A DNA stretch of 64,000 nucleotides from Candidatus Latescibacterota bacterium (GTDB lineage Bacteria > Latescibacterota > UBA2968 > UBA8231), in contig CBDCSU010000005.1 of NCBI GenBank assembly GCA_965221775.1, positions 544,001-608,000 on the forward strand. The letters run 5' to 3'. The position numbers and the translations under genes were made by a program. Every line of letters begins with the position of its first letter. The first letter of the stretch is position 1. Positions 45,567-64,000 of the stretch are shown here, piece by piece. The notes under the pieces were generated by a model, which was given only the letters and a program-made list of their open reading frames with translations, was not told the DNA's origin and did not search any database.

Positions 45567-45572
45567 GGTCCC

Positions 45573-45974: not shown

Positions 45975-45976
45975 GG

Positions 45977-49775
<3,799 letters not shown>

Positions 49776-49822
49776 TCGGCTCTCTCGTTCCTGAATTGGT
49801 TGCAGTTGGCTGCGGCCGGCCC

Positions 49823-50365: not shown

Positions 50366-50383
50366 GTGGCGGTCCCGTCCCCC

Positions 50384-50887
50384 TCAGGCCGACGGCTGCG
50401 ACTGCGGCAGACGTCCGATGAAGTCGTCGGCGAGCTTGCGGTTGCGCTCGCCATCGAGCTCGGCGTCGAGGATGGCGCCGGCGGCCTGCACGGCCATGTC
50501 GGCCGCCGCCTCGCGCAACTCGATCAGGGCCGCTCGCTTCTCCGCCTCGATGCTCTCGGATGCCCGGTCGGCGGTGCGCTGCGCCTCCTGGCGGGCCTCC
50601 TCGACGATGCGCGCGCCCACCTGCTCGGCGGCCTCCCGCGCCTCGGACACGATGCGCCGCGCCTCGGACTCGGCCCCGGCCAGCCGCTCCTCGTGCTCGG
50701 CCAGCCGGGCCTCGGCCTCCTGGCGGGCCCGGTCGGCGCTCTCGAGAGACTCGCGGATGCGGTTCTCGCGCTCGTCCAGGGCCGCCAGCAGCGGACCCCA
50801 CACCTTGGCCCTGAGGATGAGGAGCACCACCAGGAAGGTGATGATCGTCCACAGGATGAGACCCGGATGTGGGCTGAGCAGATCCAT
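50384..50887 (-). CDS. atpF: ATP synthase subunit b
   Basis: N-terminal TM helix, W.P....DERE, coiled coil. Confidence 0.93.
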
Positions 50888-50888
50888 T

Positions 50889-51125
<237 letters not shown>

Positions 51126-51980
51126 TCAGTGTTCCGGGTGGGCTGCCATGTTCACGAACAGGGCCGTGAGCAGCGTGAAGATGAAGGCCTGGATGAAGGC
51201 GATGAAGATCTCCAGCAGGTAGAGGGCCGCCGCCAGGACGACCGAGGCCGGGGCCACCCAGTAGCTCTTGAGCATGATGATCATGCCGAGGAAGACGAGG
51301 ATGGCGACATGGCCGGCGATCATGTTGGCGAAGAGGCGGATGCACAGGGCGAAGGGCTTGGCCAGCATGCCGATGATCTCGATGGGGACGAGGATGATCA
51401 GCAGCGGCGCCGGCAGGCCCGACGGCACCAGGTTCTTCCAGTGGCCGAAGAAGCCGTTGTTGAGGATGCCCGCCCCCTGGGTGACGGCGAAGGAGATCAG
51501 GGCGAGGGCGGCGGTGACGCTGATGTTCCCGGTCGCCGTGGCGCTGTACGGCAGCAGGCCGAAGAGGTTGCAGTACAGGATGAAGAAGAAGACGGTGAGC
51601 AGGAACGGCAGGTAGGCGCGGCCCCCCTCGCCCATGACGGGCAGAACGACCTCGTCGCGCAGGAACAGGACGATCGTCTCGAGGAGGTTGGCCAGGCCCG
51701 ACGGCACCAGGGCGGGGCGCCGGAAGCAGGCCAGCATGGTGAGGACGAGGAGCCCGCTGGCCAGCCACATGACCACCACGTGGCGGGTGATGGACATGTC
51801 GACGCCGAAGATCGGCTCGGCCAGTCCGAGCGCCTCGGACAGGCCGCGCAGGTCGATGTGACCGTCGAAGATGTGGTGGGCGTTGACGAAGGGCACTTCC
51901 AGGGAATCGTGGTCCAGGATGTGCCCGATTACGTCTACTTGATTGTCCGCGCCATCGGCGGCGGACGCCTCTCCTGCCAT
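51126..51980 (-). CDS. atpB: ATP synthase subunit a
   Basis: N..GL.P, IRLFANM.AGH, LE....IQAFIF..L. Confidence 0.96.
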   Translation of the reverse strand: MAGEASAADGADNQVDVIGHILDHDSLEVPFVNAHHIFDGHIDLRGLSEALGLAEPIFGVDMSITRHVVVMWLASGLLVLTMLACFRRPALVPSGLANLLETIVLFLRDEVVLPVMGEGGRAYLPFLLTVFFFILYCNLFGLLPYSATATGNISVTAALALISFAVTQGAGILNNGFFGHWKNLVPSGLPAPLLIILVPIEIIGMLAKPFALCIRLFANMIAGHVAILVFLGMIIMLKSYWVAPASVVLAAALYLLEIFIAFIQAFIFTLLTALFVNMAAHPEH

Positions 51981-52104
51981 CGACTCCCCCCCGGAGGTGG
52001 CCAGGGGTGCTGGGAACAGACTGAAGGAATTGTAGGACTTGGCGGTTGGCCCTGTTGCGCGGCCGGAAGGAAAATGTGTGTGCCCCGAGGTCTTGTCAAC
52101 AGCC

Positions 52105-52407
52105 TCAGGGCCGCGGGCGGCGGCCGGCGCCGCGGGCCACGAGGACCACCTCCAGGCCGAGGAAGACCAGGTAGGCCACGATCAGGCCGGCGGCGTAGCC
52201 GGTCCTGTGCGTATCCGTGAACCACAGCAGGATGAGGGAGACGGCGGCCACGAGCATCAGCCTGGCCACGGTGCCTCCGAGGATGGCGACCACCAGGGCC
52301 CGGGGGTGCCTCGCGCCGAGGCGCAGACCGACCCAGGCGATGACGGCACTTGCGGCGGCCACCAGGACTCCTGCGGCGGCGGCGATCCATGGATCCTGCA
52401 TGATCAT
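52105..52407 (-). CDS. atpI: AtpI-like membrane protein
   Basis: Small hydrophobic ORF with G..ARL, upstream of atpB. Confidence 0.65.
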   Translation of the reverse strand: MIMQDPWIAAAAGVLVAAASAVIAWVGLRLGARHPRALVVAILGGTVARLMLVAAVSLILLWFTDTHRTGYAAGLIVAYLVFLGLEVVLVARGAGRRPRP

Positions 52408-52652
52408 TCCCCTTTCTCGAGATCCTTCGGCCAGCCGCCGGAGACCAGGGTCCGGCACACCTGGTAGAACGCTGCCGCGGCACCGATGAGGGCTCCCGCG
52501 ATCAGCAGCCACGGCGACGTTCCGAGCCCGCCGTCGGCCCACCACCCGGCGGCGGCGCACAAGGCCACGGTCACCGCGAACTGCACGCCGAGGCCGGCCA
52601 GGCGGCCCAGCTCACGAAGCGCCCCGCGCTGCCCGCCGTCGCCGCGACTCAT
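52404..52652 (-). CDS. AtpZ/AtpI-family small membrane protein
   Basis: GVQF......G.W.D..LGT.PW....G..IG; overlaps nuoN-like stop (ATGA). Confidence 0.75.
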   Translation of the reverse strand: MSRGDGGQRGALRELGRLAGLGVQFAVTVALCAAAGWWADGGLGTSPWLLIAGALIGAAAAFYQVCRTLVSGGWPKDLEKGE

Positions 52653-54055
52653 CGGAACCCCGCCGCCGCCCCGGCGACCTCCGCCGCGCGGGCGACGGGC
52701 GCCGGCCACAGGCCCAGCAGCAGCAGCAGCCCGGCGCTCAGGACCGCCGCCGAGAGACCCCCCGCATCCGGCGCCAATGCCTCCGGGGACTGCTCCCGCC
52801 CCCAGGCGACGCGGGCGGCGAAACGGAGGAATACCCAGGCGGTGAGCAGAGCGTTGGCCAGCAGCAGGACGAAGCCTGCCGACGAGGTCTCGGCCAGACC
52901 TGCGAGCAGGGCCGCACGGGAGGCGAAGGCGGCCGTGGGCGGCAGGCCGGCGAGGGCGATGAGGCAGACGCACAGGGCGGCGCCGGCCACCGGCTCCCGG
53001 CGGGCCAGTCCGGCCGCCGTCCCTGCCCGGCCGATGAGGCCGCTCACCGCCAGCCCTCCCCCGAGGGCGAGGACCGCCGCCGTGAGCTGCAGCCACAGGC
53101 CGGGAGACGGGCCGGGGCCCGCCGCGAGGGCCGCCAGGCCATACCCCGCCTGGATCACCACGCCGTACCCCAGCAGCCTGGTGAGCCTGCGCCGGGGCAG
53201 GGCCAGCAGGTTGCCGGCCGTCACCGTCACCAGCGAGGCGGCCAGCAGCAGCGACGGCAGGTCCGGACGGACCTCGGCCAGGACCTCCACCAGCCGGCCG
53301 CCGACCACCAGGGCCGGGACCACGGAGACAGCCACCGTCAGCATCACCGCCGAGGGTGCGCAGCCGGCGCCGATCTCGCCAACCCAGTAGTGGAAAGGCA
53401 CGGCCCCGGCGCGCACCGCGAGGCCCGTCAGCAGCAGACCACCCCCGACGACGGTCATCGCCGCGGATCCCGCGGCGGCGCCCCTCGCCAGGTGGTCCCA
53501 CTGGGAGGTACCGGCTCCCGCCCACAGGCAGGCGATGCCCAGGAGGGTCAACCCCGTGGCCGCGGCCATGGGACCGGCCTGGCGCAGGACGGCGCGGGCG
53601 GCGGCGGCGGGTCCGAGGGCGTTGCCGGCGATCAGACTCGCGGAGGCCAGCTCCAGACCGATGAACAGGACCACGAGATCCCGGGCCGAGACAGCCACCA
53701 TGGCGCCCAGGACGCCCAGGGCCGTCAGCACCCCGGCCGCCGCCCGGCTGCCGGCCGCGGCCGGTGAGCCCGCCATCAGCAGGCCGGCGAGCACGGCTCC
53801 CCCGAGGATCAGCAGGTCGGCGAAGGCAGCCACCGGGTCGGCGTACAGCAGTCCGTGCCGCCCCAGGGAGACGGGATCCCAGGCCTGCAGCGACAGGGAG
53901 AGGGCCACCAGAAGGCCCCCCAGGGTGAGAACGGCCGGCGCGCGGCCGGGGCGACGCGGCCAGAGCGCGGCGTCGAGCAGGGCCAGACCGATGGCCAGCA
54001 GTCCCAGGCTCGTCTCCGGCGCCAGGTCCGGGCCTGCCAGGTCCGTCCACCTCAC
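52649..54055 (-). CDS. nuoN: Degenerate NuoN-like antiporter subunit
   Basis: FIGLEL, VPFHYW, GNL.AL, RLL.Y....AGY, LAGLPP...F; TM7 Lys appears as Arg. Confidence 0.7.
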   Translation of the reverse strand: MRWTDLAGPDLAPETSLGLLAIGLALLDAALWPRRPGRAPAVLTLGGLLVALSLSLQAWDPVSLGRHGLLYADPVAAFADLLILGGAVLAGLLMAGSPAAAGSRAAAGVLTALGVLGAMVAVSARDLVVLFIGLELASASLIAGNALGPAAAARAVLRQAGPMAAATGLTLLGIACLWAGAGTSQWDHLARGAAAGSAAMTVVGGGLLLTGLAVRAGAVPFHYWVGEIGAGCAPSAVMLTVAVSVVPALVVGGRLVEVLAEVRPDLPSLLLAASLVTVTAGNLLALPRRRLTRLLGYGVVIQAGYGLAALAAGPGPSPGLWLQLTAAVLALGGGLAVSGLIGRAGTAAGLARREPVAGAALCVCLIALAGLPPTAAFASRAALLAGLAETSSAGFVLLLANALLTAWVFLRFAARVAWGREQSPEALAPDAGGLSAAVLSAGLLLLLGLWPAPVARAAEVAGAAAGFR

Positions 54056-55482
54056 GGCCGGAGGCCCTCGGCCGGCCCGGTGGATGTCGGGGAGCCCGCC
54101 ACCATGCGCTCGATGACCGGCCGGGCCCCGGATAACAGCGGCTCCGGGCGCAGACCGAATACCCCGGCGGTGGCGATGACCAGGGCCAGAACCCAGCCCA
54201 GGGCCCCGCGGCCGGACGCAGGCGGTCTCCTCGCCAGACCGACCACCGGATCGAGGAGCGCCAGCGCAAGGACTCCCGATGAGAGGATGAGGAGCCAGCC
54301 CAGGACCGGGTGGGCCGCCAGGACCCCCGCCATCAAGGTCAGCCAACCGGGCAGGGCCCCGCCCCCCGGGGCGGCGGCCACGGTCAGGCCGAGGGCCAGC
54401 CAGGCCCATGCGGTGCGCAGACCGCCGGCGCCCCGGTCCTCGATCCACAGGGCGAGAAGGAGCAGGGAGGCGCGCGGCAGGGCGATACCCGCGGCCAGGG
54501 CCGCGGCTCCGAGGGCCTGGAGGCTGCCGGGCGCGAAGACCCCGGCGGCCATCAGGGCTCCGGTGGAGGCCACGGCCAGGGCCGCCCGCCGGGACAGGCC
54601 GGGGCGCGGCTGGACAACCGCCAGCATCGCCGTCCACAGTGCGCTTGCGCCGGCCCACAGCCCCAGCCAGGGAGAGGCCGCCAGGGCTTCGGCCGGAAAC
54701 AGGGCCAGCCAGAATCGCAGCAGACCGAAAGCCCCCACCGCGCACCAGGCGCCGGAGATCAGGATCCTCCCGGAGAGGGCGCCGGAGGTGCACACCGGGA
54801 CCAGCCAGGTATGGAACGGCACGAGGGGGATCTGCATGGCCAGGGCCGCCGCCGCCAGGGCCGCCGCCGGGCCCCCGTGGGAGACGCCCGCGGCGGCGAG
54901 TTCGTCGACGAGGGTGCTGCCGCTCCCGGCGCCGCCCAGGGCCGCGGCGGCGGCCAGCATCAGGGAGCCGCTCGCCGCCCAGTGAGCGAAGCGGCGGCCG
55001 GCGCGCCCGCTGCCCGCTGCCCGGCCCAGGCCGAGGACCGCCGCCAGGGCCAGACCGGCGAGACCGTGGCCGGCGGCCGCCACCATCAGGTCCCGGGAGG
55101 TCAGCACCAGGGCCATCCCCCCGGCGCCGGTCAGGGCCAGGGCCAGCCGGGCCCGGCTGGGAGTGCCCCCGAAGCGGCCTTCCACGCACACCGCCAGCAG
55201 CAGCACCGCCGCCAGGGCCAGCAGGGCGTACCGGTTGAGGCCATCGACGGCCAGCGACAGCCCGGAGCCCGTGGTCGCCAGCCACGGGGCGGTAAACCCC
55301 CAGGAGAACTCCCGTCCGTGGGGGGCCGCCAGACATGCGAGGCCGGCGAGGAGCAGCAGACCCGCCGCGGCGGCGGTGGAGACCCTTCTTGCGGCGAGCC
55401 CCCGCAGCGGCGCCAGGGCGAGGCCCAGAGCCGCGCCCAGGGGCAGCAGGACGATGGACCAGGCCACGAAGGGGGCGGCCAC
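54052..55482 (-). CDS. nuoM: Degenerate NuoM-like antiporter subunit
   Basis: PW.......L.VDGL, PLVPFHTWL, G.FG.LRF...LFP, G..P; key Glu/Lys absent. Confidence 0.65.
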   Translation of the reverse strand: MAAPFVAWSIVLLPLGAALGLALAPLRGLAARRVSTAAAAGLLLLAGLACLAAPHGREFSWGFTAPWLATTGSGLSLAVDGLNRYALLALAAVLLLAVCVEGRFGGTPSRARLALALTGAGGMALVLTSRDLMVAAAGHGLAGLALAAVLGLGRAAGSGRAGRRFAHWAASGSLMLAAAAALGGAGSGSTLVDELAAAGVSHGGPAAALAAAALAMQIPLVPFHTWLVPVCTSGALSGRILISGAWCAVGAFGLLRFWLALFPAEALAASPWLGLWAGASALWTAMLAVVQPRPGLSRRAALAVASTGALMAAGVFAPGSLQALGAAALAAGIALPRASLLLLALWIEDRGAGGLRTAWAWLALGLTVAAAPGGGALPGWLTLMAGVLAAHPVLGWLLILSSGVLALALLDPVVGLARRPPASGRGALGWVLALVIATAGVFGLRPEPLLSGARPVIERMVAGSPTSTGPAEGLRP

Positions 55483-55483
55483 C

Positions 55484-57187
55484 TCAGCGGCCTCCCATGG
55501 ACCACAGGATCACCAGCACCACGCCCGCTGCCAGGGCCGCCGCCCAGAGCCGCCGACCGGCGTGCTCCACCCGCGCCAGGGTCCAGCCCGCTCCGCGGAG
55601 AACCAGGCCCAAGGCTCCCCAGGCGGCGCCGAGGACGGCGCCGTCGACGAAGGTCCACAGGCCCCGGCCCAGGGAGGTGGCCGCCACGGCCGCCCCCTGC
55701 TGCGCGGCGCCGGCGCCAAACCCGCCGGCGGCGAGCCGGCGCGGGGCCGAGGCAGGCCGGGAAGCCGGCTTCAGACCCCGGCGCCAGATCAGGGCCGCGA
55801 CTCCCAAGGCGCCGGCGTTGGCCGCGGCGGCCAATCCGACGCCGTCCATGGAGGGCGCTGGCAGGCGCAGCCAGGCGAGGGCCGGCAGAGCCGCCAAGAC
55901 CAGACCCGCCGAGACCGATCCGGCCGCGATCGGGAGAGCCGGCCGGACCACCTCCTTCGACTCGGCCGGTGGAGCCGCCCCTGGAAAGGGTGAGAGGGCG
56001 AGACGGCCCACGGAAAGGACCGCCAGGACAAATGGGCCCAGGGCGGCGGCCATCCCCGCGGGTCCGTAGCCGCCGTAGGCATGCTTCAGAAGGAGTGCCT
56101 GACCCCACAGCCCGGTGAGGGAGAGGCACGGGACCAGGACGGCGGCCAGGCACATCCACCGGGCCGCCGGCAGGGAGCGGCCCAGCCCGCCCAGATGGTC
56201 CAGGCGCTCCACCGCCGGAAGGGCGGCCCTGACGAGACCGGTACCCGCGGCCAGGCAGAGGCGGGCCCCAAGGGCCGCGCTCAGCACCAGCCATCCCGCG
56301 ATTGGATCGGCTGCGGCCGCCGCCGCCACCAACCCGGACTGGGCTACCGTAATCCAACCCTGGACCCGCTGCAGTCCGTAGCTTGCCAGTGCCGCCGCCG
56401 AGGCGGCGACGGCAGCCGCCAGGCCGACAACGAAGACCACCTCCTGCAGGGCACCGGCCAGAGGGCCGGCCCGGGTCAACAGGGATGCGCCGGCCACGGC
56501 CAGAACGCTCGCCTCGGGGGCGGAGGCCGGGCTCGCCGAGGCCTCCAGGATCCACTGGTGAAGAGGCCAGACGCCGAGGCCGATGACGGCCGCGAGGAGG
56601 AGCAGGCCGGCGGCCGGTTCCGGCCAGGGGTTGCCTTCGTGAAGGCCCCCTCCCGCCAGCGAGGCGGCGGCGGCGGCCATCAGGGCTACCGAACCGATGC
56701 GAGTCAGCAGCAGAAGGCGGCGGGCGCCGGCTTCGGAGACCTCCCCGGACCTGGCGGCCGTCACCAGGAGGGCGGCGACGGCGATCTCCCATCCCAGCAG
56801 CAGCGGCAGCCAGTCGGCGGCGCACGACAGCAGGGCCACTCCCACGGCGGCCACCGTGATCAGGGCCCGGTGGACCCCGTCGATGGCCGGCTGGGCCAGG
56901 GGATACAGCAGACCGACGACGGCGGCGCCCAGGGCAGCCGCCGCGGGCCCGTCGGCGCGCAGGTCGAACCCGAGGCTGGCGCCGCCCACTTCCATCCATG
57001 TACCGAAGACGAGACGGACGGGACCGGCGCTGACCGCTCCCCCTGCGAACCCGGCGGCGGCGAGGCATGCGAGGAGCCGGAGAGCGTGGGCCGGCCGCGG
57101 CCGTCCTGCAAGGTCGGCCGCGGCGGCTCCGGCGAAGGCCAGGAGGACGGCGGCGAGGGCCGCACCCAGAGTCGGCGCGTCGGTCAC
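55484..57187 (-). CDS. nuoL: Degenerate NuoL-like antiporter subunit
   Basis: W.......F....D, GWE, TRIG, PLH.W, Q.G, LGGL...LP, VDG...G. Confidence 0.65.
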   Translation of the reverse strand: MTDAPTLGAALAAVLLAFAGAAAADLAGRPRPAHALRLLACLAAAGFAGGAVSAGPVRLVFGTWMEVGGASLGFDLRADGPAAAALGAAVVGLLYPLAQPAIDGVHRALITVAAVGVALLSCAADWLPLLLGWEIAVAALLVTAARSGEVSEAGARRLLLLTRIGSVALMAAAAASLAGGGLHEGNPWPEPAAGLLLLAAVIGLGVWPLHQWILEASASPASAPEASVLAVAGASLLTRAGPLAGALQEVVFVVGLAAAVAASAAALASYGLQRVQGWITVAQSGLVAAAAAADPIAGWLVLSAALGARLCLAAGTGLVRAALPAVERLDHLGGLGRSLPAARWMCLAAVLVPCLSLTGLWGQALLLKHAYGGYGPAGMAAALGPFVLAVLSVGRLALSPFPGAAPPAESKEVVRPALPIAAGSVSAGLVLAALPALAWLRLPAPSMDGVGLAAAANAGALGVAALIWRRGLKPASRPASAPRRLAAGGFGAGAAQQGAAVAATSLGRGLWTFVDGAVLGAAWGALGLVLRGAGWTLARVEHAGRRLWAAALAAGVVLVILWSMGGR

Positions 57188-57456
57188 GGGTGGGGCGCCT
57201 CTCCTGACTTGTCGGCGGCCTCCCGGCGGACCAACGCCAGCACGAGGCCCGCCTGGACCCCCGCCGCGGCAACCGCGGCGACGGCCAGCACCCGCCCATC
57301 GGCGCCGAGGAGGGCCACCACGGCCATCACCCCGCCGAGGATCCCGACCTGCCCGGCCACCAGCGGCGCGAGGGCATGAGACCGGAGCAGGGCGGCCCCG
57401 ACGCCGGCGGCCAGGAGCAACGCGGCCAGCGCCAGGACCCATGCGGTCGCGGTCAC
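57184..57456 (-). CDS. Degenerate NuoK-like subunit
   Basis: 90 aa, three TM helices, position between J and L; both conserved Glu absent. Confidence 0.55.
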   Translation of the reverse strand: MTATAWVLALAALLLAAGVGAALLRSHALAPLVAGQVGILGGVMAVVALLGADGRVLAVAAVAAAGVQAGLVLALVRREAADKSGEAPHP

Positions 57457-57914
57457 GAGGCCTCCATGCCGGGATCCGGCCGCCGACAGAGGGCGCCGAT
57501 CCCGACCACCGCCGAGAGCAGCAACAGTGCTCCGAGGACGACGGCCGGAACGCCGCTGCGCGGCGGCTCCGCGGGCGGGGGCGGTCCTGCCGCCGAGGCG
57601 GCGGCCAGGGCCGTGGCCAGGACCGCCCCCAGCCCCAGGACCACGATCGCCGACAGGAGCCGGGGCGGAGGGCTGGCGCCGCTGGCGGTCAGCGCCGCCG
57701 GCGACGAGGCCGCCGCCAGCCCCACCGCCGCCTGCACCAGGAGCACGGCGGCGGCGGTGAAGGCGTCGTGCAGGGCGGCGATGGCGGCCACCCCGGCCCC
57801 GGCGAGACCCAGGCAGACGCAGGCGCCGTGGGGCGAGCGCCAGCAGGCGGCGGCGAGGGCGCCCCCACCGGCGGCGGCGGTGGCGGCGAGAAGGATCAGC
57901 TCCACGGCAGCCAC
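57453..57914 (-). CDS. Degenerate NuoJ-like subunit
   Basis: Hydrophobic ORF, RSP..A...L...G, A.F.A...., LLL.AVVG..AL; operon position. Confidence 0.5.
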   Translation of the reverse strand: MAAVELILLAATAAAGGGALAAACWRSPHGACVCLGLAGAGVAAIAALHDAFTAAAVLLVQAAVGLAAASSPAALTASGASPPPRLLSAIVVLGLGAVLATALAAASAAGPPPPAEPPRSGVPAVVLGALLLLSAVVGIGALCRRPDPGMEAS

Positions 57915-58828
57915 CCCGCGGAGCGGAGGACCGAGAGGGCGAGGTCGATCAGGGCGAGGGGGACGATGCGCGTCCAGGCCGCGCGCGCGAGCCCCGCGGG
58001 CGTGCCGTCCGACAGGCTGGACCCGAGGACCACGGCCGAGGCCAGCACCGCGGCGGCGGTCAGACCGGGCAGGATCTCCACCCAGCCGGCCGCCGCCGGC
58101 AGGCCGCCGCCGAAGAGGTGGTAGGCGAGGAGGGCGGCCGCCCCCATCTGCAGGTACCGCGACAGGGACAGCCACACCGGTGCCGTTCCGGAGGCCGGAC
58201 GCAGCCCCGCCCGGCGGCCGCCGAGCACCGATCCGGTGCAGCGGCAGAGGATGGCGAGGGCCCCGACCCAGGCCGCCGCCCCCGCCGGATGGGACCACAG
58301 GGGCCAGGCCCCCGGGGTGCGGGAGTACGCCGCCAGCACCGGACCGCCGTCGATGACCAGCGCCGCCGCCACCAGCAGAACCGCCAGGTGGCATCCGATG
58401 ATGGCCCCGGCGCCCGCCATCAGGGCCCGTTGCCCCTCGGCCCCGGCCAAGGCCGCCGGCAGCAGCCACGCCTGGACCGAGACCGCCAGCAGCGCCACCA
58501 GCAGCAGGGCCTGCACCGTTCCGCCCCCGGGGGCCACCCCCGGAAGAGACAGGCCTCCCACGCCAGCGCCGGGGGGCAGCAGAGCGACCAGGGCCAGAGC
58601 CGGCAGCAGGGCGGCGAAGGCGGCGGCCCCCGCTCCGGGGGCCGGCCTTCCCGATCGTGCCATCACCTTGGCGGCGTCGGCCACGGGACCGAGGAGGGGC
58701 GGACGGCGCAGACCGTTGACGCGGGCCAGCGCCGCACGCTCGACGATGGCGCTGACGAAGGCGAGACCGAGGGTACCGAGGAAGACGAGGAAGGCGTCGC
58801 CGGAGGAGATGTCGGCAGAGGAGGTCAC
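57896..58828 (-). CDS. nuoH: Degenerate NuoH-like subunit
   Basis: VER...AR.....G...ADAAK; C-terminal W....PLAL; acidic PFDL.EAE.EL loop absent. Confidence 0.6.
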   Translation of the reverse strand: MTSSADISSGDAFLVFLGTLGLAFVSAIVERAALARVNGLRRPPLLGPVADAAKVMARSGRPAPGAGAAAFAALLPALALVALLPPGAGVGGLSLPGVAPGGGTVQALLLVALLAVSVQAWLLPAALAGAEGQRALMAGAGAIIGCHLAVLLVAAALVIDGGPVLAAYSRTPGAWPLWSHPAGAAAWVGALAILCRCTGSVLGGRRAGLRPASGTAPVWLSLSRYLQMGAAALLAYHLFGGGLPAAAGWVEILPGLTAAAVLASAVVLGSSLSDGTPAGLARAAWTRIVPLALIDLALSVLRSAGWLPWS

Positions 58829-60435
58829 GGCCGGATTTCGGGATCGGCGGAGGGGACGAGGCCGCGGCGCTGCAGCCAGCTCGACCAGCCGCCGCCGAAG
58901 GCGGGCCCCGATGTCGGATGGTCATCGTCGTCGAGGGTTCGGTAGTCGAGGCCGGCGAAGGGTTTGCATCGAGTCCGGGCCAGCCGCGCGAAGACCTGGT
59001 CCGCCGAATCGCGGTTGGGACCGCCGTGCCAGAGGGCGCTGAGGATCCACAGGTCCGGTCTGGCGTCGCCGGGAGGCTCGACGGCGGAGCGGACCCGCCG
59101 CACCCGGCCGAGGCCATCGACGAAGGTGCCCTCCTTCTCGGTCCAGGCGCTCCCGCCCGCCAGGGCGATGGCGGCTCCGTCCACGAGCGGCGACGGGGTG
59201 AGGTCGTGGGCGATGAGCCGCGTCTCCGGACCCGGAAGCGGGCCCGGGCCCTCTCCGCACAGAGAGCCTCCCACGGCGTACACCACGTCGAGGCCTGCGG
59301 GCAGGTCGCCGGCCGGAAGCGGGGACGATCCCGACGCCCGGGCGACAGCCTGGACTCCGGCCGCGTTCGGACCCCTGGAGGCGCTGATCGTGAACCCTCC
59401 GGGAAAGAGGCGGTCTCCCTCGGGGTCCGCCGCCTCCCACGAGTAGACGGCCGCTCTCCACCGGTGGGCGAGCTGGATGAGCAGGAAGGCCTCCTCGTTG
59501 GTCAGGTAGGGGCTCAGGACCACCGCGGAGCGGCGCGCCTGCTCCATCTCTTCGGCAACGCCGGCCAGGGCCGTGTCCCAGGCCGTCTCCCCGCCCTCCC
59601 GGCGCGGAGCCAGCAGGCGTTCGACCTCCGGCTGCCAGCCGTAGCGGCCGTGATCGCACAGCCAGAAGCCGCCTTCGGGGTTCTCGGGCCGGGGCTTGAC
59701 CCTCCACACACGGCCGTCGTGCACGTCCACCCGGGTGGCGCAGCCGCTGGCGCAGCCGGCGCACACGCTCGACACCCCCGTCAGCCGCCACGGCGGCGGG
59801 GCCTCGCGTTCCCCGGGGTCGCTCAAGGCGCCTGCCGGGCACAGGTCGAGAAGGTTGCCCGCCATGGGCCCTGCGGCTTCCTCACCGGCACTGGCGGCGA
59901 TGCCGGCGCCCGCCCCGCTGCCTTCGACGGCCAGCACCGGCTCCCCGGAGACCTCCTCGCCGAAGCGGACACAGCGGGTGCACAGGATGCATCTGCGGCG
60001 GTCGAGGACGAGCCGCGGCCCGAGGACGAGACGCTCCGGCGCCTCCGGCGCCTCGGAAGGCGTTCGGCCGCCCCCGGCAACCCTCACCGCCTCCTGCAGC
60101 TCGCACTCGCCCGCCCGCTCGCAGACGGCGCAGTCCGCCGGATGGCGCAGCAGCAGGTCGTCGAGCACGCGCTCCCGGGCCTCCGCCGCTTCGGGCGCAT
60201 CGAGGGAGACCGACATCCCCCCGCCGACCCTGTGATTGCAGGTGGTGATCAGCTCCGGCCCCCCCGGCCCCTCCAGGGAGGCCAGGCACAGACGGCAGGA
60301 GGCCGGCGCCGAGAGGGCCGGATGGAAGCAGGGGTGCGGCAACGGGCGGCCAGCCGACAGCAGGGTCGTCAGGAGGTTCGCCCCCTCCCGAGCCTCCACG
60401 GCCTCCCCGTCCACGTGGATGGTGACGATGGCCAT
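58825..60435 (-). CDS. nuoG: NuoG-like Fe-S subunit (short, 536 aa)
   Basis: CFHP.L....CRLC...C; HPADCAVC...GEC.LQ; CILCTRC...CPAGAL; CAGCASGC...CDHGR. Confidence 0.82.
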   Translation of the reverse strand: MAIVTIHVDGEAVEAREGANLLTTLLSAGRPLPHPCFHPALSAPASCRLCLASLEGPGGPELITTCNHRVGGGMSVSLDAPEAAEARERVLDDLLLRHPADCAVCERAGECELQEAVRVAGGGRTPSEAPEAPERLVLGPRLVLDRRRCILCTRCVRFGEEVSGEPVLAVEGSGAGAGIAASAGEEAAGPMAGNLLDLCPAGALSDPGEREAPPPWRLTGVSSVCAGCASGCATRVDVHDGRVWRVKPRPENPEGGFWLCDHGRYGWQPEVERLLAPRREGGETAWDTALAGVAEEMEQARRSAVVLSPYLTNEEAFLLIQLAHRWRAAVYSWEAADPEGDRLFPGGFTISASRGPNAAGVQAVARASGSSPLPAGDLPAGLDVVYAVGGSLCGEGPGPLPGPETRLIAHDLTPSPLVDGAAIALAGGSAWTEKEGTFVDGLGRVRRVRSAVEPPGDARPDLWILSALWHGGPNRDSADQVFARLARTRCKPFAGLDYRTLDDDDHPTSGPAFGGGWSSWLQRRGLVPSADPEIRP

Positions 60436-61752
60436 TCAGAACCGCACGTGGATGCTCTCGGGGGACTTCATGGACAGATCCTTGGCCACCGGGCAGCCGC
60501 CGTCCAGATGGGCCTCGAACTCCTCGGCGAAGGCGGCGGCCAGGGCGCTGACCGCGGAACCGGCGAGGGGTCCGTGCCCGCACAGGGCCAGGGACGAGGT
60601 CAGGGACGCGGTCCTGGAGCGCAACTGCTCCAGCTCCCCCGCGCTCGAGGCGCCGGCCTCGAGCCGCTCGAGGGCGCCGGCAGCCCAGGCCAGACCCTCG
60701 CGGCATGGCGGGCACTGGGCGCAGGACGCGCCGGCCAGGGAGGACGCCACCAGCCGCGCCGTGTCCACGGCGCAGACCGTCTCGTCGGCGACGATGACGG
60801 CCCCCGAACCGAAGTCGCCGTCGAGGCCGCCGCCGCCGGGGCGGCTCCAGGCCCCGGGATCGACGGGCCGGTCGAGATCGGCCTCGCGCAGCACGGGCCG
60901 GGAACCGTACCCGGAGTGGAGGACGAACTTCAGGGGCCGGCCTTCCGGCGTCCCCCCCGCCAGCCCCTCCACCAGACCGCGGAAGGTGCCCGAACCGAGG
61001 GCCACCTCATACAGACCCGGGCGGCGCACGAGGCCGCTGATGCAGAAGACCTGGGTCCCCGGCGCCGAGGCGCTGCCCACGGCGCGGAAGGCGGCGCTCC
61101 CCCCCGCCATCACCCGCGGCAGGTAGCCGAGGGTGGAGGCGGTATGCACGGCGGCAGGCTCACCGAAGAGGGTGGCGGCCGGCCCCCGGGTGCCGTCCGC
61201 TGCCCTCGGCTCGGGGCGGCCGCCCTCGATCAGGTTGAGGGGCAGGCTGTCGCCCGCGGCGATCGGCAGCGGTCCGGGCACCGGGTGCAGGTGGATGGCC
61301 AGACCGTGGCCGCCGATCTCTCCCGCCTCGCCCAGTTCCGCAAGGGCCGCGGCCAGGGCCTTCCGCGCCCGCAGCGCGTCGGCGCGGATGCAGAGGAAGG
61401 CCGCCGAGGCGCCGGTGGCCAGGGCGGCGATACGCACGCCCTCCAGCAGCCGGTGGGGGTGGCGCTCCGCCAGCTTGCGGTCGCGGAAACGGCCCGGCTC
61501 CGGCTCCAGCAGGTCGGCCACCAGGTAGCGGGCGCCGCCGCGCTCCCTCAGGGCCTGCCAGCGCTCCCCCACCGGCCGCCAGGAGCCGCCGCGGCCTCTC
61601 AGGCCGGAGGCCGTCACCTCCTCCGCCACCCCCTCCGCTCCCAGGGCCCGGGCCCGGTCGATGCCCTCGCCGCCGCCGCCCCGGCAGTAGACCTGGTAGC
61701 GCTCGACGTCGGGCACGTCGATGCCCTCGAAGAGCAGGCGGTGCTCGTTCAC
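60436..61752 (-). CDS. nuoF: NuoF-like subunit with altered FMN/NADH site
   Basis: SGLRGRGG, EPEPG.F.DR, GSGA.IV, SCAQC.PCREG...CGHG. Confidence 0.8.
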   Translation of the reverse strand: MNEHRLLFEGIDVPDVERYQVYCRGGGGEGIDRARALGAEGVAEEVTASGLRGRGGSWRPVGERWQALRERGGARYLVADLLEPEPGRFRDRKLAERHPHRLLEGVRIAALATGASAAFLCIRADALRARKALAAALAELGEAGEIGGHGLAIHLHPVPGPLPIAAGDSLPLNLIEGGRPEPRAADGTRGPAATLFGEPAAVHTASTLGYLPRVMAGGSAAFRAVGSASAPGTQVFCISGLVRRPGLYEVALGSGTFRGLVEGLAGGTPEGRPLKFVLHSGYGSRPVLREADLDRPVDPGAWSRPGGGGLDGDFGSGAVIVADETVCAVDTARLVASSLAGASCAQCPPCREGLAWAAGALERLEAGASSAGELEQLRSRTASLTSSLALCGHGPLAGSAVSALAAAFAEEFEAHLDGGCPVAKDLSMKSPESIHVRF

Positions 61753-62168
61753 GCCGCCTCTCCCGAGACCAGGTCGTCGAGGCGCCCGGGGGTCAGCCCC
61801 TCGAAGAGGCGACCCCCGCGCTCGAAGGCGGGTGCCGCCGAGCAGACGCCGAGGCAAGGGACGGGGATCACGAGATCGCCGAGACGTTCTCGCATCCGGC
61901 GGACGACCTCGTCGCCCCCCATGAGCCGGCAGCTCAACCCCGCGCAGACGCGCACCCGGTCCCGGGACCGGCCGGCGCCGCGGCTGGAGGCGATCCCGGC
62001 GACGGCGGCGGCCGACAGTCCCGTGAGCCCGGCGATCCAGCGCGCCGCCTCGAGCTCGCAGGCGCCGCGGTCGGTCAGCACCAGGTCGATGAGGGGCATC
62101 AGGGCCCCGGAGGGCCTGGGGTAGCGGCTCAGCAGCTGCCGGGCGCGATGCTCCAGGGCCTCGTTCAC
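61749..62168 (-). CDS. nuoE: NuoE-like [2Fe-2S] subunit
   Basis: YP...ALMP; VCAGLSC...CLGVC..AP. Confidence 0.78.
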   Translation of the reverse strand: MNEALEHRARQLLSRYPRPSGALMPLIDLVLTDRGACELEAARWIAGLTGLSAAAVAGIASSRGAGRSRDRVRVCAGLSCRLMGGDEVVRRMRERLGDLVIPVPCLGVCSAAPAFERGGRLFEGLTPGRLDDLVSGEAA

Positions 62169-63685
62169 CGGTCCATCTCGGAGGCGATGACGTTGAGGCT
62201 GGCCACCACCTGCGGTGCCTGGGCGTAGCCGACGCCCGCCAGCAGCGCCGGGAGGACGCGGAAGTGGTACAGCGAGGGCGAGCGCAGGTGGACCCGGACC
62301 GGGCCGCCGGCGCCGTCGGAGACCAGGTAGAAGGCCAGCTCGCCGTCGGCGGACTCGATGGGGAGGTAGATGTCGGACCGCTCGGGACGATACCCGTGCC
62401 CGTCCATCCAGCGCTCGAAGTGGTCGATCAGCTCGGCGGGCTCCGTGGAGCGCACCGTCGGCCGGGGGGCCTCGTGGGCCAGGGTCGGTCCGCCGGGGGC
62501 GCCGGCCAGGCACTGGCGGGCGATGGAGAGGGACTCCCCCATCTCCTCGATGCGAACCCGCGTGCGCTCGACGACATCGCCGGAGTCGGCCGTGGGCACC
62601 CCGAACCGGACCTCCCCGTAGGCGAGGTAGGGCTCGGTGCGCCGCACGTCGAGGTCGATGCCCGCGGCGCGGGCGGCCGGCCCCGTAACCCCGGCGCCCA
62701 GGGCCTCGGCGGCGTCGAGAACCCCGGCGCCGGAGAAGCGGCGGCGCCAGTCCCGGTGGCCCACCGTGCCGCGCAGGGCATCGGCGCGCAGCCGGTCGAC
62801 GGCGCCCCCCAGGTCGGCCAGCAAGCGGCCGGCGCCGGCGGGCACGTCGGCGGCGATCCCGCCGATGCGCTGGGTGCCGGTGGCCCAGCGGCAGCCGCTG
62901 GCGGCGGCGAGAAAGCGCGCCGCCGCCTCCCGGGCGGTCAGGGCCTGGCCCCACAAGACCGAATCGGGCCCCGCCAGGTTGGCCAGCCAGGCGCAGTGGG
63001 CGGCGATGCGGCTGATCTCGGCCAGCAGCATGCGCACCCAGGTGCACCGGGGCGGCGGCTTGATCCCCAGCAGGGCCTCGGCGGCGAGGATCGCCGCCAG
63101 GCCGGGCACGAACGGCGCCTGCTCGTTGAGGCTCTCGGCCAGCACCGGCAGCTGGGCCCAGGTACGGCTCTCGGCGAGTCTCTCGAAGCCGCTGTGGAGC
63201 CGTCCCGGGCGGGCCGTGGCCGTTTCGATCCGGCCGCCGCGCAGGCGCGCCCCCAAGTCGAGCCGGAAAGGGGTGGCCTCGGAGGGGTCGGGGATCGGCA
63301 CCTCCCCCTCCGGCGGCGGCGGCATCTCTCCGGGGACCATGGCCGGCGGCGCGGGGAACAGCGGCCGCAGGTCCTCCCGCCCCTCGATCCGCATCCCGAA
63401 GCGGCCGGCCATCTCCCGCTCCGGCCAGTCGGCGGCGGGCCAGATGTGGGCCAGCCCCGGCAACTCGCCGGCCCCGGTGGCGGTCAGCCGGATCCGGTTC
63501 CCCGCGGCCGAGCGGAGCTGGTAGACCGCGCGGAGTGGAGAGTCGGTGCCGGCGCCGCCCACGGCGGTGAGGTCGACGAGATGCAGCGTCGGGTCCGCCG
63601 CCAGCAGCGCCTCCACCTGCGGCTCCAGCCGGCCGGCGGAGACCTCCATGGCCGCCGCGGCCTCCGGCGGGGCGGCGGCCGTCAC
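62165..63685 (-). CDS. nuoCD: Fused NuoC/D-like subunit with altered quinone site
   Basis: WPAADW.ERE...FG; G.LH.G.E.L.E; E..RI..H; GVTGP..R; GE..FY; RSPS; EMDR end. Confidence 0.8.
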   Translation of the reverse strand: MTAAAPPEAAAAMEVSAGRLEPQVEALLAADPTLHLVDLTAVGGAGTDSPLRAVYQLRSAAGNRIRLTATGAGELPGLAHIWPAADWPEREMAGRFGMRIEGREDLRPLFPAPPAMVPGEMPPPPEGEVPIPDPSEATPFRLDLGARLRGGRIETATARPGRLHSGFERLAESRTWAQLPVLAESLNEQAPFVPGLAAILAAEALLGIKPPPRCTWVRMLLAEISRIAAHCAWLANLAGPDSVLWGQALTAREAAARFLAAASGCRWATGTQRIGGIAADVPAGAGRLLADLGGAVDRLRADALRGTVGHRDWRRRFSGAGVLDAAEALGAGVTGPAARAAGIDLDVRRTEPYLAYGEVRFGVPTADSGDVVERTRVRIEEMGESLSIARQCLAGAPGGPTLAHEAPRPTVRSTEPAELIDHFERWMDGHGYRPERSDIYLPIESADGELAFYLVSDGAGGPVRVHLRSPSLYHFRVLPALLAGVGYAQAPQVVASLNVIASEMDR

Positions 63686-64000
63686 GGAGACTCCTGCCGG
63701 GCGGGCCGCCCCCCCCGGCGCCCGGCGTGGATCAGGGCGATGGCGATGACCAGGACGAGGAGCAGCATCGGAAGGAAGCCCCCGGCGCTTTCGGACTCGG
63801 CGGCCAGGAGCACGAGGAGCACGACGGCGCCGGAAAGGGCCGGGGCGAGCCAGGCGAGGGGCCGCCATGGGTCACCGGTCTCGACCTCGCCGGCGGCGGG
63901 CTCAGCGGACGACGGGGTCTCCCTGACGGGGCCGGCGAGGGCCCGCCGCAACAGGGCGGCCAGTACCCCCAGCAGCAGCCAGAGGCCGAAGTAGGTGAAG
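63682..64000 (-). CDS. Degenerate NuoA-like membrane protein (runs off right edge)
   Basis: Frame open to window edge (FTYFGLWLLLGVLAALL...); three hydrophobic segments; stop overlaps nuoCD GTG. Assignment is positional. Confidence 0.45.
   Translation of the reverse strand, partial: FTYFGLWLLLGVLAALLRRALAGPVRETPSSAEPAAGEVETGDPWRPLAWLAPALSGAVVLLVLLAAESESAGGFLPMLLLVLVIAIALIHAGRRGGRPARQESP

Follow-up and report, generated by a model that had tools for sequence, protein, structure and literature searches.

A split, fast-evolving complex I homologue with conserved Fe-S ligands that has probably lost proton pumping in a sponge-associated bacterial lineage

Gene content and layout of the locus

The window (the whole stretch of 64,000 nucleotides that was analysed) comes from an uncultured, sponge-associated lineage placed in Gemmatimonadota. 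On its minus strand, at positions 52649-64000, it carries a complex I-like operon in the order nuoA-CD-E-F-G-H-J-K-L-M-N, in which C and D are fused; nqrA-F lie directly upstream and an F1Fo atp operon downstream. The features are listed below (window positions):

63682-64020, minus strand: nuoA-like small membrane protein, 112 aa, whose TTG start at 64020 lies 20 nt outside the window; precedes CD and overlaps it by GTGA; hhalign to NuoA E 0.0075, no Pfam match; 77% identity in the relative G007
62165-63685, minus strand: fused nuoCD, 506 aa; PF00346 (201.6 bits) and PF00329 (45.8 bits)
61749-62168, minus strand: nuoE-like, 139 aa; PF01257 (47 bits), four Cys of the 2Fe-2S site kept
60436-61752, minus strand: nuoF-like, 438 aa; PF01512 and PF10589, all four N3 Cys retained, changes in the NADH/FMN motifs
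58825-60435, minus strand: nuoG-like, short, 536 aa; Pfam Fer2_4, NADH-G_4Fe-4S_3, Fer4_Nqo3 and Molybdop_Fe4S4
57896-58828, minus strand: nuoH-like, highly diverged, 310 aa; hhalign to canonical NuoH and AF2 model
57453-57914, minus strand: nuoJ-like, 153 or 150 aa; overlapping position between H and K, hhalign E 0.0077, orthologues in relatives
57184-57456, minus strand: nuoK-like, 90 aa; hhalign E 3.8e-4 and alignment
55484-57187, minus strand: nuoL-like, 567 aa; PF00361 (40.5 bits), motif alignment
54052-55482, minus strand: nuoM-like, 476 aa; PF00361 (26.7 bits), motif alignment
52649-54055, minus strand: nuoN-like, 468 aa; PF00361 (73 bits), motif alignment
52404-52652, minus strand: atpZ-like, 82 aa, opening the atp operon downstream; PF09527 (56.4 bits), ATGA junction
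45573-52407, minus strand: atpI-like, then atpB, atpE, atpF (PF00119, PF00137 and PF00430, respectively) and further atp genes, those beyond atpF being named by order and size alone

Seven junctions of the operon (A/CD, CD/E, E/F, G/H, J/K, K/L and M/N) are GTGA overlaps, F and G abut (TGAATG), L and M are separated by 1 nt, H and J overlap by 19 nt (10 nt if the other GTG is the start), and N overlaps atpZ by ATGA. As the original prediction had stated, this leaves no space for nuoB or nuoI, and neither gene was found by tblastn in the operon's counterparts of eight relatives when the canonical NuoB and NuoI of this genome served as queries. Since spurious long ORFs are frequent at 75-77% GC (63 ORFs of at least 80 aa within 14 kb), third-position GC was an important check: in frame it amounts to 0.8-1.0 along each gene of the operon, with an unbroken periodicity in all of them, confirming genuine coding sequence and uninterrupted frames.

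All eight relatives fetched, representing five genera, show the same arrangement, with a nuo operon devoid of B and I between nqr and atp; all genomes compared are MAGs, and the window's own genome (G000) has an estimated contamination of 7.75%. The atp genes have a normal composition and evolve slowly, with 96% identity of atpB in both G007 and G006. In one sponge metatranscriptome library, contigs fell on 30 of 30 bins of window positions 44500-64000, a signal to which DNA carry-over may contribute and whose depth cannot rank the genes.

Identity of the subunits

Pfam matches, most of them weak, were obtained for CD, E, F, G, L, M and N; there was no Pfam match for A, H, J and K, and for H no NCBIfam match either. 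NuoH aligned with canonical NuoH in a profile-profile comparison (hhalign, E 9.7e-5, 268 columns), and its AF2 model (pLDDT 79, pTM 0.84), whose input alignment held canonical NuoH rows, had only NuoH/ND1/NdhA chains among its top 50 PDB matches (TM 0.64-0.77). Its relatives among 5.8 billion proteins form 11 clusters, all unnamed. Profile match and position weakly suggest the identities of J and A, with E values below those of the mismatched hhalign controls (0.2-0.48). Curated family cut-offs are far from being reached: NuoD scores 254 bits under NCBIfam (cut-off 360), NuoF 235 bits against TIGR01959 (559), NuoL 34 bits under NCBIfam (556), NuoM 67 bits against TIGR01972 (264) and NuoN 123 bits against TIGR01770 (333). 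The sole exception is a NuoB encoded elsewhere in the genome.

The missing subunits are encoded in trans

The original prediction held that nuoB and nuoI, whose products carry N2 and N6a/b and so provide the link to quinone, are missing from the operon. A genome-wide search, which it had proposed, yielded a lone nuoB, a lone nuoI and a second, canonical nuo operon. The lone nuoB (PF01058 match at C4:1022647-1022961, 68.4 bits) encodes a protein of 131 aa that scores 125.5 bits against NCBIfam NF005012, above the cut-off of 116, and lies in the context dnaJ-mrp-nuoB-prmA, where mrp (PF10609) is an mrp/NUBPL-type gene for an Fe-S-delivery ATPase. The lone NuoI-like protein (146 aa; TIGR01971 73.9 bits, under the cut-off of 113) is encoded on the same contig between rny and dxr. 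The N2 ligands of NuoB and both CxxCxxCxxxCP motifs of NuoI are intact, so the chain is not broken by missing subunits, and the eleven genes of the operon together with the two lone genes make up all 14 core subunits. Each of the two contexts was found in 13 of 13 family loci examined, and in G006 and G017, both assembled as one contig, the operon, nuoB and nuoI are located on a single chromosome, which excludes a binning error.

Four lines of evidence assign the lone genes to the operon: co-occurrence, parallel divergence, common composition and joint absence. They were found only in relatives with the operon, and identities to G000 for CD, lone NuoB and lone NuoI, respectively, fall together: 88, 86 and 87% in G007; 76, 82 and 71% in G006; 53, 63 and 56% in G001; and 40, 39 and 52% in G017. 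In G017 there is one CD match and one PF01058 match, and no canonical NuoI was found. The residues Ala, Gly, Arg and Pro make up 43-54% of all 13 gene products, compared to 25-39% in neighbours and canonical nuo genes, and Lys only 0-1.1%. The seven genomes that gave no match to CD or to NuoB (G010, G011, G012, G016, G018, G019 and G024) contained no NuoI beyond two weak ferredoxin-like matches. In three of these (G011, G019 and G024) nqrF is directly followed by atpZ-atpI-atpB, and both lone genes were absent from all three. That three or more genera have lost the complex completely shows it to be dispensable, and would also fit slow decay.

When NuoD (residues 130-506) and the lone NuoB were modelled together, the ipSAE was 0.67, compared to 0.00 for the best of three controls; for the mark applied, the pass rate is 58 of 80 among solved complexes and 2 of 110 among mismatched pairs. 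At least 94% of the contacts agreed between runs and partner pLDDT was at least 77. This pass may reflect likeness to solved structures, because NuoB-NuoD is a textbook pair.

Fe-S ligands are kept and catalytic residues replaced

Across the operon, lone NuoB and lone NuoI, every one of the nine Fe-S clusters has its ligands conserved. The Cys/His ligands of N1a, N3, N1b, N4, N5 and N7 are all present, as predicted, and 35 of 36 ligand columns are invariant across 8-9 family genomes, compared to 9-19% of the other ungapped columns. NuoE (nine genomes) and the N3 site of NuoF retain four of four columns each, and NuoG (N1b, N5, N4 and N7; eight genomes) 15 of 16, the exception being a Cys to Arg change in G017.

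In canonical complex I, quinone binding in NuoD, the charge relay of NuoH and NuoK, proton movement through NuoL, NuoM and NuoN, and NADH/FMN binding in NuoF depend on well-known residues. Aligned with Thermus thermophilus Nqo4 (2fug_4), NuoD has Pro139 at the position of chain H38 and Glu188 at that of Y87, so that both the His and the Tyr of the quinone site are replaced; the Tyr is kept in G017. In NuoF the GAGAYICGEET region reads VPGPLPIAAGDSL and GRGGAGFPTGxKW reads GRGGSWRPVGERW; this replacement is a feature of the window's own genus, and GAGAYI.GEE is mostly kept in the less diverged family members G017, G022 and G023. NuoH has lost its conserved acidic and loop motifs, and both conserved Glu of NuoK are Gln. 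In the antiporter-like subunits the following sites are changed: (i) four of five in NuoL, with the TM5 Glu kept, the TM7 Lys, TM8 His and TM12 Lys lost and the TM11 Lys replaced by Arg; (ii) all four in NuoM, with the TM5 Glu replaced by His, the TM7 Lys by Gln, and the TM8 Lys and TM12 Glu lost; and (iii) three of four in NuoN, with the TM5 Glu kept, the TM7 and TM12 Lys replaced by Arg and the TM8 Lys lost. These calls come from alignments of very diverged proteins (34-40 bits for NuoL), in which a shifted functional residue could be missed, and the Lys to Arg changes may represent general compositional drift rather than targeted loss. A single missing motif is no proof of inactivity, as the TM7 Lys is likewise missing from the canonical, slow-evolving NuoM of this genome. 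Operons without B and I but with fully canonical L, M and N motifs occur in G030 and G040, two genomes that belong to other families.

The proposed stripping of coupling residues was thus confirmed in NuoD, NuoH, NuoK and NuoL/M/N. Cognate nuoB and nuoI do exist outside the window, yet the catalytic residues are not retained. The conclusion that this is not a working NADH:quinone proton pump is largely supported, though on another footing than the one first given: not the absence of B and I, but the loss of the NuoD His and Tyr, the NuoK Glu, most NuoL/M/N Lys and Glu, and the NuoH and NuoF motifs.

Selection on the diverged genes

In comparisons with G007 and G006, respectively, dN/dS was 0.34 and 0.26 for E, F and G (the lowest within the diverged set), 0.35 and 0.38 for CD with the lone NuoB and NuoI, and 0.42 and 0.40 for the membrane subunits. 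The corresponding ratios were 0.18 and 0.22 for the canonical 11-subunit operon (Nuo11), 0.13 and 0.23 for nqr, and 0.15 and 0.19 for atp; ordinary genes reach values similar to those of the diverged set (prmA 0.27-0.39, atpZ 0.46-0.55, canonical nuoC 0.24-0.34). The diverged genes show a dN three to five times that of canonical nuo, nqr and atp genes, and their dS also exceeds that of neighbouring genes. The pair G001-G009 gave a pooled operon dN/dS of 0.21, with dS near saturation. The original prediction had named neutral dN/dS and frameshifts in close relatives as signs of simple decay. The bootstrap upper bound of dN/dS is at most 0.49, and 38 of 41 between-species indels in three close pairs are multiples of three, where one third would be expected. 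The one apparent frameshift, in nuoG of G009, is due to a stretch of N in the assembled sequence. Constraint is relaxed yet far from neutral, with purifying selection on every module, and the 13 genes share one regime of high dN, drift to Ala, Gly, Arg and Pro, and almost no Lys.

Weighing the explanations

We consider it likely that these genes encode a complete but split, fast-evolving complex I homologue, its clusters still bound and its function as a proton-pumping NADH:quinone oxidoreductase lost. An enzyme that still works with unconventional residues, possibly pumping at altered stoichiometry, its divergence reflecting fast adaptive or compositional evolution, appears unlikely. The full set of subunits, the nearly invariant ligands, the selection on every module and the TM5 Glu kept in NuoL and NuoN agree with it, as do the NuoF motif of G017, G022 and G023, the NuoD Tyr of G017 and the fact that the operon's complex is the only complex I homologue found in G017 and G022. 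However, in the window's genus the NuoD, NuoK, NuoL/M/N, NuoH and NuoF sites have all changed at once, the HMM scores (lone NuoB excepted) lie far under the curated cut-offs, and a slow-evolving Na+-NQR is encoded next door. Simple decay, with a dead remnant redundant beside Na+-NQR whose frames are open only because stops are rare at 76% GC, is decidedly improbable. It would account for the raised dN and dS, the drift to GC-rich codons, the abundance of spurious ORFs and the clean absence of the region from G011, G019 and G024, but not for the dN/dS of 0.26-0.42 and its upper bound, the in-frame indels, the ligand columns, the periodicity unbroken in every gene or a state common to at least five genera at 36-53% protein identity, with the sole apparent frameshift being an assembly gap.

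The possibility that only NuoEFG matter, as NADH-input module of the canonical 11-subunit complex, the rest of the operon being a remnant, we regard as very improbable: the 11-subunit operon does lack E, F and G, and these three have the lowest dN/dS of the set, but it is the NADH/FMN motifs of NuoF that are altered in the window's genus, the membrane and Q-module genes are under purifying selection too, and the operon is retained in G017 and G022, both of which lack a canonical 11-subunit operon. Still harder to credit is a membrane-anchored Fe-S wire to another partner that genuinely dispenses with NuoB and NuoI; the absence of both genes from the operon, here and in all eight relatives checked, is set against lone copies with intact ligands, operon-like composition and rate, and joint presence and absence, and against the model that places the lone NuoB on NuoD. 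The initial alternatives of a repurposed complex or relaxed selection both hold in part: selection is relaxed (dN three to five times higher), yet dN/dS stays at 0.26-0.42 with frames and ligands kept, and a new partner, a scaffold or a sensor role was not borne out.

Comparison with known systems

The split homologue shares with canonical bacterial complex I (T. thermophilus, 4HEA; E. coli, 7NYR) the 14 core subunits, the operon gene order and the Fe-S ligand sets of E, F, G, I and B, and with that of E. coli the fusion of C and D; in PDB sequence comparisons, CD and F match best to chains of complex I or of related flavoproteins. It differs in having nuoB and nuoI at two other loci, in its much faster evolution and in the replaced key residues of NuoD, NuoF, NuoH, NuoK and most of NuoL/M/N. 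Nitrospina gracilis is described as possessing a second complex I, NUO-2, with scattered genes (nuoB2 and nuoF2 alone) and a NuoF with a non-canonical cofactor-binding pattern, apparently without the FMN site; a similar complex is mentioned for 'Ca. Kuenenia stuttgartiensis' (PMC3578206). The scattered nuoB and the departing NuoF pattern are features that our system has in common with this description. NUO-2 is further reported to carry extra Fe-S clusters in NuoG2 and NuoF2, with reverse operation towards ferredoxin proposed (PMC3578206), whereas Pfam detects no extra Fer4 domains in the window's NuoF (438 aa) and NuoG (536 aa), and a loss of membrane-arm pump residues such as seen here is not known to have been reported for NUO-2.

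The genome's second system is the canonical operon A-B-C-D-H-I-J-K-L-M-N (L026), without E, F and G, most subunits of which are 96-99% identical to those of G007. Two complex I-type systems therefore coexist in this genome, as has been described for some bacteria (PMC4453560). Compared to this 11-subunit NDH-1, the window operon has E, F and G, has no B or I in cis, and is the fast-evolving copy. Pseudoenzymes, homologues without catalytic activity that are retained in a structural or regulatory capacity, offer a further parallel: as in the split complex, selection preserves the fold and the sites of cofactor binding, whereas the catalytic residues are gone. Here, however, the pattern would span a whole 14-subunit membrane complex.

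Implications for energy metabolism

In the split complex the proteins would still be made, loaded with clusters and assembled into a complex I-shaped particle, whose peripheral arm may still carry electrons. This particle would be unable to couple NADH:quinone turnover to proton pumping, and is probably no longer an energy-conserving pump. NADH-linked energy conservation would have been taken over by the Na+-NQR encoded directly upstream, with the separate 11-subunit Nuo complex perhaps sharing this role in the window's genome. The split complex may survive in a non-pumping role, either structural or in low-flux Fe-S electron transfer, or else as a remnant that has long persisted under selection for something other than the textbook reaction.

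Operon layout and gene identity

The source assembly (G000) comprises 5.36 Mb in six contigs at ~70% GC; the window corresponds to G000:C5:544001-608000, and its 52–64 kb part has 75–77% GC. At such GC content long ORFs, many of them spurious, are present in all frames (63 ORFs of at least 80 aa overlap window 50000–64000), so coding frames were assigned by codon-position GC. Third-position GC was 0.8–1.0 in one minus-strand frame per operon gene, without a shift inside any gene. The genes are linked by seven GTGA overlaps, and the chain is delimited by:

63682–64020, minus strand: nuoA, first gene of the chain nuoA, nuoCD, nuoE, nuoF, nuoG, nuoH, nuoJ, nuoK, nuoL, nuoM, nuoN
chain end at 52649, minus strand: nuoN, its stop and the start of an atpZ-like gene overlapping as ATGA

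Frames, junctions and Pfam, NCBIfam and profile matches confirmed the gene order, which the original prediction had described correctly. The atpZ-like gene, directly after nuoN, is the first gene of the atp operon, and nqr lies upstream, past the window end; in the close relative G007 the nqrB, C, E and F orthologues are 94–100% identical, and nqrB, C, D, E and F score above NCBIfam equivalog cut-offs.

Pfam matches, mostly weak, were obtained for CD, E, F, G, L, M and N, and none for A, H, J and K. The recognised subunits each fall in their cognate Nuo family in NCBIfam, with scores far under the curated cut-offs (bits/cut-off: NuoD 254/360, NuoF 235/559, NuoG 252/470, NuoE 54/308, NuoN 123/333, NuoM 67/264, NuoL 34/556); NuoH had no NCBIfam match. 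Ten proteins were scanned, including a NuoB and a NuoI encoded by lone genes elsewhere in the genome, of which only the lone NuoB exceeded its cut-off (125.5 vs 116; lone NuoI 74/113). The identity of H and K was confirmed by profile-profile comparison, and the top 50 PDB matches of the NuoH structure model were exclusively NuoH/ND1/NdhA chains. A and J are tentatively assigned, mainly from their position and weak profile scores. Together, the 11 genes of the operon (CD being a fusion) and the lone nuoB and nuoI encode 14 of the 14 core subunits NuoA–N.

Promoter and terminator scans of window 45000–64000 and of the nqrF-nuoA spacer returned 0 sites, a result that carries no information at this GC content and in this phylum. 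The only spacer of notable length in the chain separates atpI from atpB (124 nt, window 51981–52104) and contains a TTGACA hexamer, where the promoter scan placed no site. In G007, an ORF of 86 aa (L018:14436-14696) lies in the nqrF-nuoA spacer; its third-position GC (0.94) is coding-like, and NCBIfam gave no match for it. The matching spacer of the source genome lies past the window end, at 64021–64366 in window coordinates. Plus-strand AT skew is +0.34 to +0.40 at window 52000–58000, compared with roughly 0 to ±0.15 in the rest of the window; a probable cause is the extreme amino-acid make-up of the proteins encoded on the minus strand, which are nearly devoid of Lys, Asn and Ile.

The lone nuoB and nuoI genes

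The original prediction described the operon as missing nuoB and nuoI. Their absence is confined to the operon: a search of the rest of the genome, which it had proposed as a check, identified both as lone genes, together with a second nuo operon without E, F and G. The lone nuoB (131 aa) is located on contig C4 in the order dnaJ-mrp/NUBPL-nuoB-prmA, and the lone nuoI (146 aa) lies between rny and dxr; both proteins carry all cluster ligands. Each of these contexts was found in 13 of 13 family loci, and in G006 and G017, a close and a more distant family member, the operon and both lone genes are on one chromosome.

Four independent lines of evidence tie the lone genes to the window operon and not to the second, canonical operon. 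In a survey of CD among 40 relatives, all genomes with the diverged fused CD also carried the lone genes. The G017 genome, a single contig, has one CD match and one NuoB-family match, and canonical NuoI was not found in it, so that the lone genes are the sole B and I on hand for its operon. In rate and composition, the identity of the lone genes to those of the source genome drops in step with CD identity, and all 13 genes share an extreme composition (Ala+Gly+Arg+Pro 43–54%, Lys 0–1.1%) from which their immediate neighbours differ. Finally, complex prediction placed the lone NuoB on the NuoD domain with a score of 0.67 (best of three controls 0.00), with a mark that was reached by 58 of 80 solved complexes and, among mismatched pairs, by 2 of 110; this prediction may partly reflect model memory of solved complex I.

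The second complex I-type operon and other Nuo-like genes

The canonical operon of the source genome, nuoA-B-C-D-H-I-J-K-L-M-N (G000:C5:1398448-1408095, fetched as L026:2448-12095), is slow-evolving, being 87–99% identical to that of G007. Among the matches listed, the solved structure closest to its NuoL is cyanobacterial NdhF (338 bits), and its NuoM (L026:9196-10671) scores 415.9 bits with TIGR01972. This NuoM has Leu in place of the TM7 Lys and retains the TM5 Glu, TM8 Lys and TM12 Glu; the NuoM of the relative G021 also lacks the TM7 Lys. Elsewhere in the source genome, a second NuoF-family match at C6:1748180 falls within C6:1747547-1752164, where a 580-aa NuoE/NuoF-like fusion (PF01512, 133 bits) is followed by a 947-aa NuoG/formate-dehydrogenase-like gene. 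This pair is probably an NAD-linked formate dehydrogenase or similar, unrelated to complex I.

Cluster ligands and catalytic residues

The predicted retention of N-module Fe-S ligands was borne out, and it extends to the lone NuoB and NuoI. Cys/His ligands are present at 36 of 36 positions in the source genome, and 35 of the 36 columns are invariant across 8–9 family genomes (E 4/4, F 4/4, G 15/16, lone NuoB 4/4, lone NuoI 8/8), vs 9–19% of other ungapped columns. The sole exception is one NuoG Cys replaced by Arg in G017. We take these ligand sets to belong to clusters N1a, N3, N1b, N4, N5, (N7), N6a, N6b and N2.

The stripping of coupling residues was likewise found in the alignments, in NuoD, NuoH, NuoK and most NuoL, NuoM and NuoN sites. 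The roles of the residues named here in NADH oxidation, quinone binding and proton pumping are described in the structural literature. NuoD has Pro139 and Glu188 at the positions aligned to His38 and Tyr87 of Thermus thermophilus Nqo4, which we take to be the quinone-headgroup ligands; the His is gone in eight of eight diverged copies, and the Tyr is left in G017 only. For NuoK, L, M and N, motif columns were taken from positions conserved among the canonical sequences of the same alignments, and the helix and residue labels of NuoL, NuoM and NuoN are those we presume to apply. Both NuoK Glu residues are Gln in the genus of the source genome and both are lost in all aligned nqr-linked copies. 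NuoL keeps one of five sites (TM5 Glu), with the TM7 Lys, TM8 His and TM12 Lys lost and the TM11 Lys replaced by Arg. NuoN keeps one of four (TM5 Glu), with the TM7 and TM12 Lys replaced by Arg and the TM8 Lys lost. NuoM keeps none of four, and such pump-residue loss is to be read with the caution that the slow-evolving canonical NuoM of the same genome likewise lacks the TM7 Lys. The GWxSNxKY, ISYE, AETNRxPFDxxExExEL and PRxRxDQ regions of NuoH are unrecognisable in the genus and partly kept in G017. In NuoF of the source genome, GRGGAGFPTGxKW is replaced by GRGGSWRPVGERW, NADExEPG by ADLLEPEPG and GAGAYICGEE by VPGPLPIAAGDSL; these motifs are altered in the genus and in G014, and partly to largely kept in G017, G022 and G023, which are less diverged family members.

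Selection and indels

The diverged genes are under selection, as found by the dN/dS comparison of relatives that had been proposed. Ratios were calculated by NG86 with 100 bootstraps between the source genome and G007 and G006, a method that may underestimate dS at 95% third-position GC, and they ranged from 0.26 to 0.42: E+F+G gave 0.34 (G007) and 0.26 (G006), CD together with the lone B and I gave 0.35 and 0.38, and the seven membrane genes gave 0.42 and 0.40, with bootstrap upper bounds of at most 0.49 for all three modules. Comparison genes gave 0.18 and 0.22 (the 11 canonical genes), 0.13 and 0.23 (nqr) and 0.15 and 0.19 (atp), and ordinary genes with ratios like those of the diverged genes also occur, e.g., prmA (0.27–0.39). 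In the diverged genes dN is 3–5 times higher than in the comparison genes and dS is higher too; the raised dS could reflect weaker codon-usage selection and low expression. The same-genus pair G001–G009 gave a pooled operon dN/dS of 0.21 with dS near saturation. Metatranscriptome contig depth over the operon can neither rank the genes nor prove transcription.

Of 41 between-species indels in three close pairs, 38 preserve the frame; those that do not are one 1-nt change at the nuoF/nuoG junction and a 27-nt gap split into 4+23. In the nucleotide alignment with the more divergent G001 (53–66% identity) 41 of 75 gap runs are multiples of three; because both ORF sets are intact, the off-frame gaps are read as alignment noise and were counted neither way. 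Within populations, the 12 indels listed of the 21 in window 44500–64000 include three 3-nt insertions in nuo genes, three sets of compensating changes within 11 nt, two rows at the F/G junction and one lone 1-nt deletion, at 57691, in a single contig from one DNA run (depth 13.9 of 40.1).

The nuoF stop/nuoG start junction (TGAATG, window 60433–60438) is variable: metagenome contigs have a 1-nt insertion or deletion at 60434/60435, and a 1-nt difference in G007 fuses the two genes into one 974-aa ORF (L018:9179-12103). We regard this change as variation at the junction rather than a gene break. An apparent nuoG frameshift in G009 (two tblastn frames) was rejected as a sign of decay; it comes from a run of 10 N with a flanking duplicated heptamer (L020:~10012-10024), a scaffolding artefact.

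Distribution among relatives

Among the 40 relatives, the diverged fused CD is present in eight of nine same-genus genomes and in five other genera. The ninth, G003 (76% complete), has no CD match and carries both lone genes, as does G020 (84% complete). Seven family genomes have neither a CD nor a NuoB match. In the three of these that were fetched (G019, G011 and G024), nqrF is directly followed by atpZ, the nuo-like operon is absent at this spot, and no nuoB, nuoI or nuoCD was found genome-wide. In these three, which belong to three other genera (L094, L095, L096), atpZ-atpI-atpB follow within about 400–600 nt after nqrF.

All eight fetched relatives (four of the same genus, four of other genera) have nqr, then nuo lacking B and I, then atp. 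A scan of species-representative genomes for the diverged-CD motif returned 16 loci, all in MAGs labelled Gemmatimonadaceae, Gemmatimonadetes, 'Ca. Latescibacterota' or bacterium, and sponge and marine metagenome runs of nine studies contain near-identical DNA. In G030 and G040, of other families, the operon also lacks B and I, with atpZ and atpB after it in G030 and no nqr match beside it in either genome, and its subunits are canonical at every motif examined; the split therefore predates the degeneration, which is seen in nqr-linked copies only. In two same-family genomes, G021 and G015, the operon does include B and I. In a NuoD tree with a midpoint root only, nqr-linked copies sit on terminal branches of 0.5–0.9 substitutions/site, plus long internal branches, and G030 and G040 on branches of 0.12–0.17. 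In G040, ~2.5 kb (L069:15849-18364) separates nuoM from nuoN. The relative G028 has two NuoB paralogues ~1.3 kb apart, one followed by a NuoI-like gene (L071:4814-7436), away from any nuoCD match and without an mrp neighbour, a B/I arrangement unlike that of the family studied here.

We propose, as the likely history, that an already split complex I first adjoined atp, and that the nqr operon then arrived upstream of it. Selection on energy coupling would thereupon have relaxed, with all three loci deleted in some lineages and the stripped complex presumably kept in others for a reason that the sequence does not reveal.

Comparison with known systems

The system shares its 14 core subunits and Fe-S ligand sets with respiratory complex I, but the catalytic residues of NuoF, NuoD, NuoK and most of those of NuoL, M and N are replaced. 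Eleven-subunit complex I-like enzymes lack E, F and G and have B and I in the operon, whereas the window operon is the opposite on both counts; the canonical operon of the same genome fits the 11-subunit type. Nitrospina NUO-2 is described as having scattered nuo genes, a non-canonical NuoF, and extra Fe-S cluster domains in its NuoF and its NuoG (PMC3578206). Scattered genes (here the lone nuoB and nuoI) and an altered NuoF flavin site are common to Nitrospina/Kuenenia NUO-2 and the present system, but Pfam identified no extra Fer4 domain in our NuoF (438 aa) or NuoG (536 aa). Coexisting complex I isozymes have been described, Gemmatimonas included, in PMC4453560.

In full-text literature searches, no family-wide, ligand-conserving, catalysis-stripped complex I was found, nor any split complex I or lone nuoB or nuoI in Gemmatimonadota. 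In the passages available from PMC11651109 and PMC9426454, nuo is scored as present or absent only; Table S11 and Data Set S4 may list per-genome nuo genes.

Interpretation and significance

The conservation pattern fits a complex that folds, binds nine clusters and assembles, and in which the canonical input site (in the genus of the source genome), the output site and the pump would be lost. The system is probably an assembled, cluster-bearing complex that does not act as an energy-conserving NADH:quinone oxidoreductase. Continued activity as such an enzyme is unlikely. All subunits and ligands are encoded, but the replaced residues span the quinone, NADH and pumping sites. Neutral decay, to which the raised dN might point, seems highly unlikely, and is taken to be excluded by the dN/dS bounds and the in-frame indels.

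More improbable again is that E, F and G serve the 11-subunit complex, whose operon lacks them. The B- and I-less wire of the original prediction agrees with the operon itself and is the least credible reading, a complex without these subunits being considered excluded by the four lines that link them to it.

As to function, we tentatively suggest, as one possible but doubtful reading, a 'pseudo-complex I': a full-size 14-subunit, cluster-loaded, catalytically dead particle, kept throughout a sponge-associated Gemmatimonadota family since before its genera split and recruited to a new role. It might, e.g., serve the flanking Na+-NQR and ATP synthase as a scaffold in the membrane or as a redox-sensing partner, or alternatively act as a non-pumping wire with a donor other than NADH.

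If the reading of an assembled but stripped complex is true, surveys based on operon completeness or HMM cut-offs would wrongly either overlook the system or score it as a functional complex I, and lone nuoB and nuoI may account for other 'incomplete' nuo operons. The family would represent a natural long mutagenesis experiment on complex I, in which folding, nine-cluster loading and, presumably, assembly were kept while nearly all residues for NADH oxidation, quinone reduction and pumping were free to change, so that structural and catalytic constraint could be separated subunit by subunit. From canonical (G030, G040) through intermediate (G017, G022, G023) to the most stripped copies in the genus of the source genome, the operons would also offer a graded series for tracing the sequence of functional losses that followed the arrival of the Na+-NQR operon alongside.
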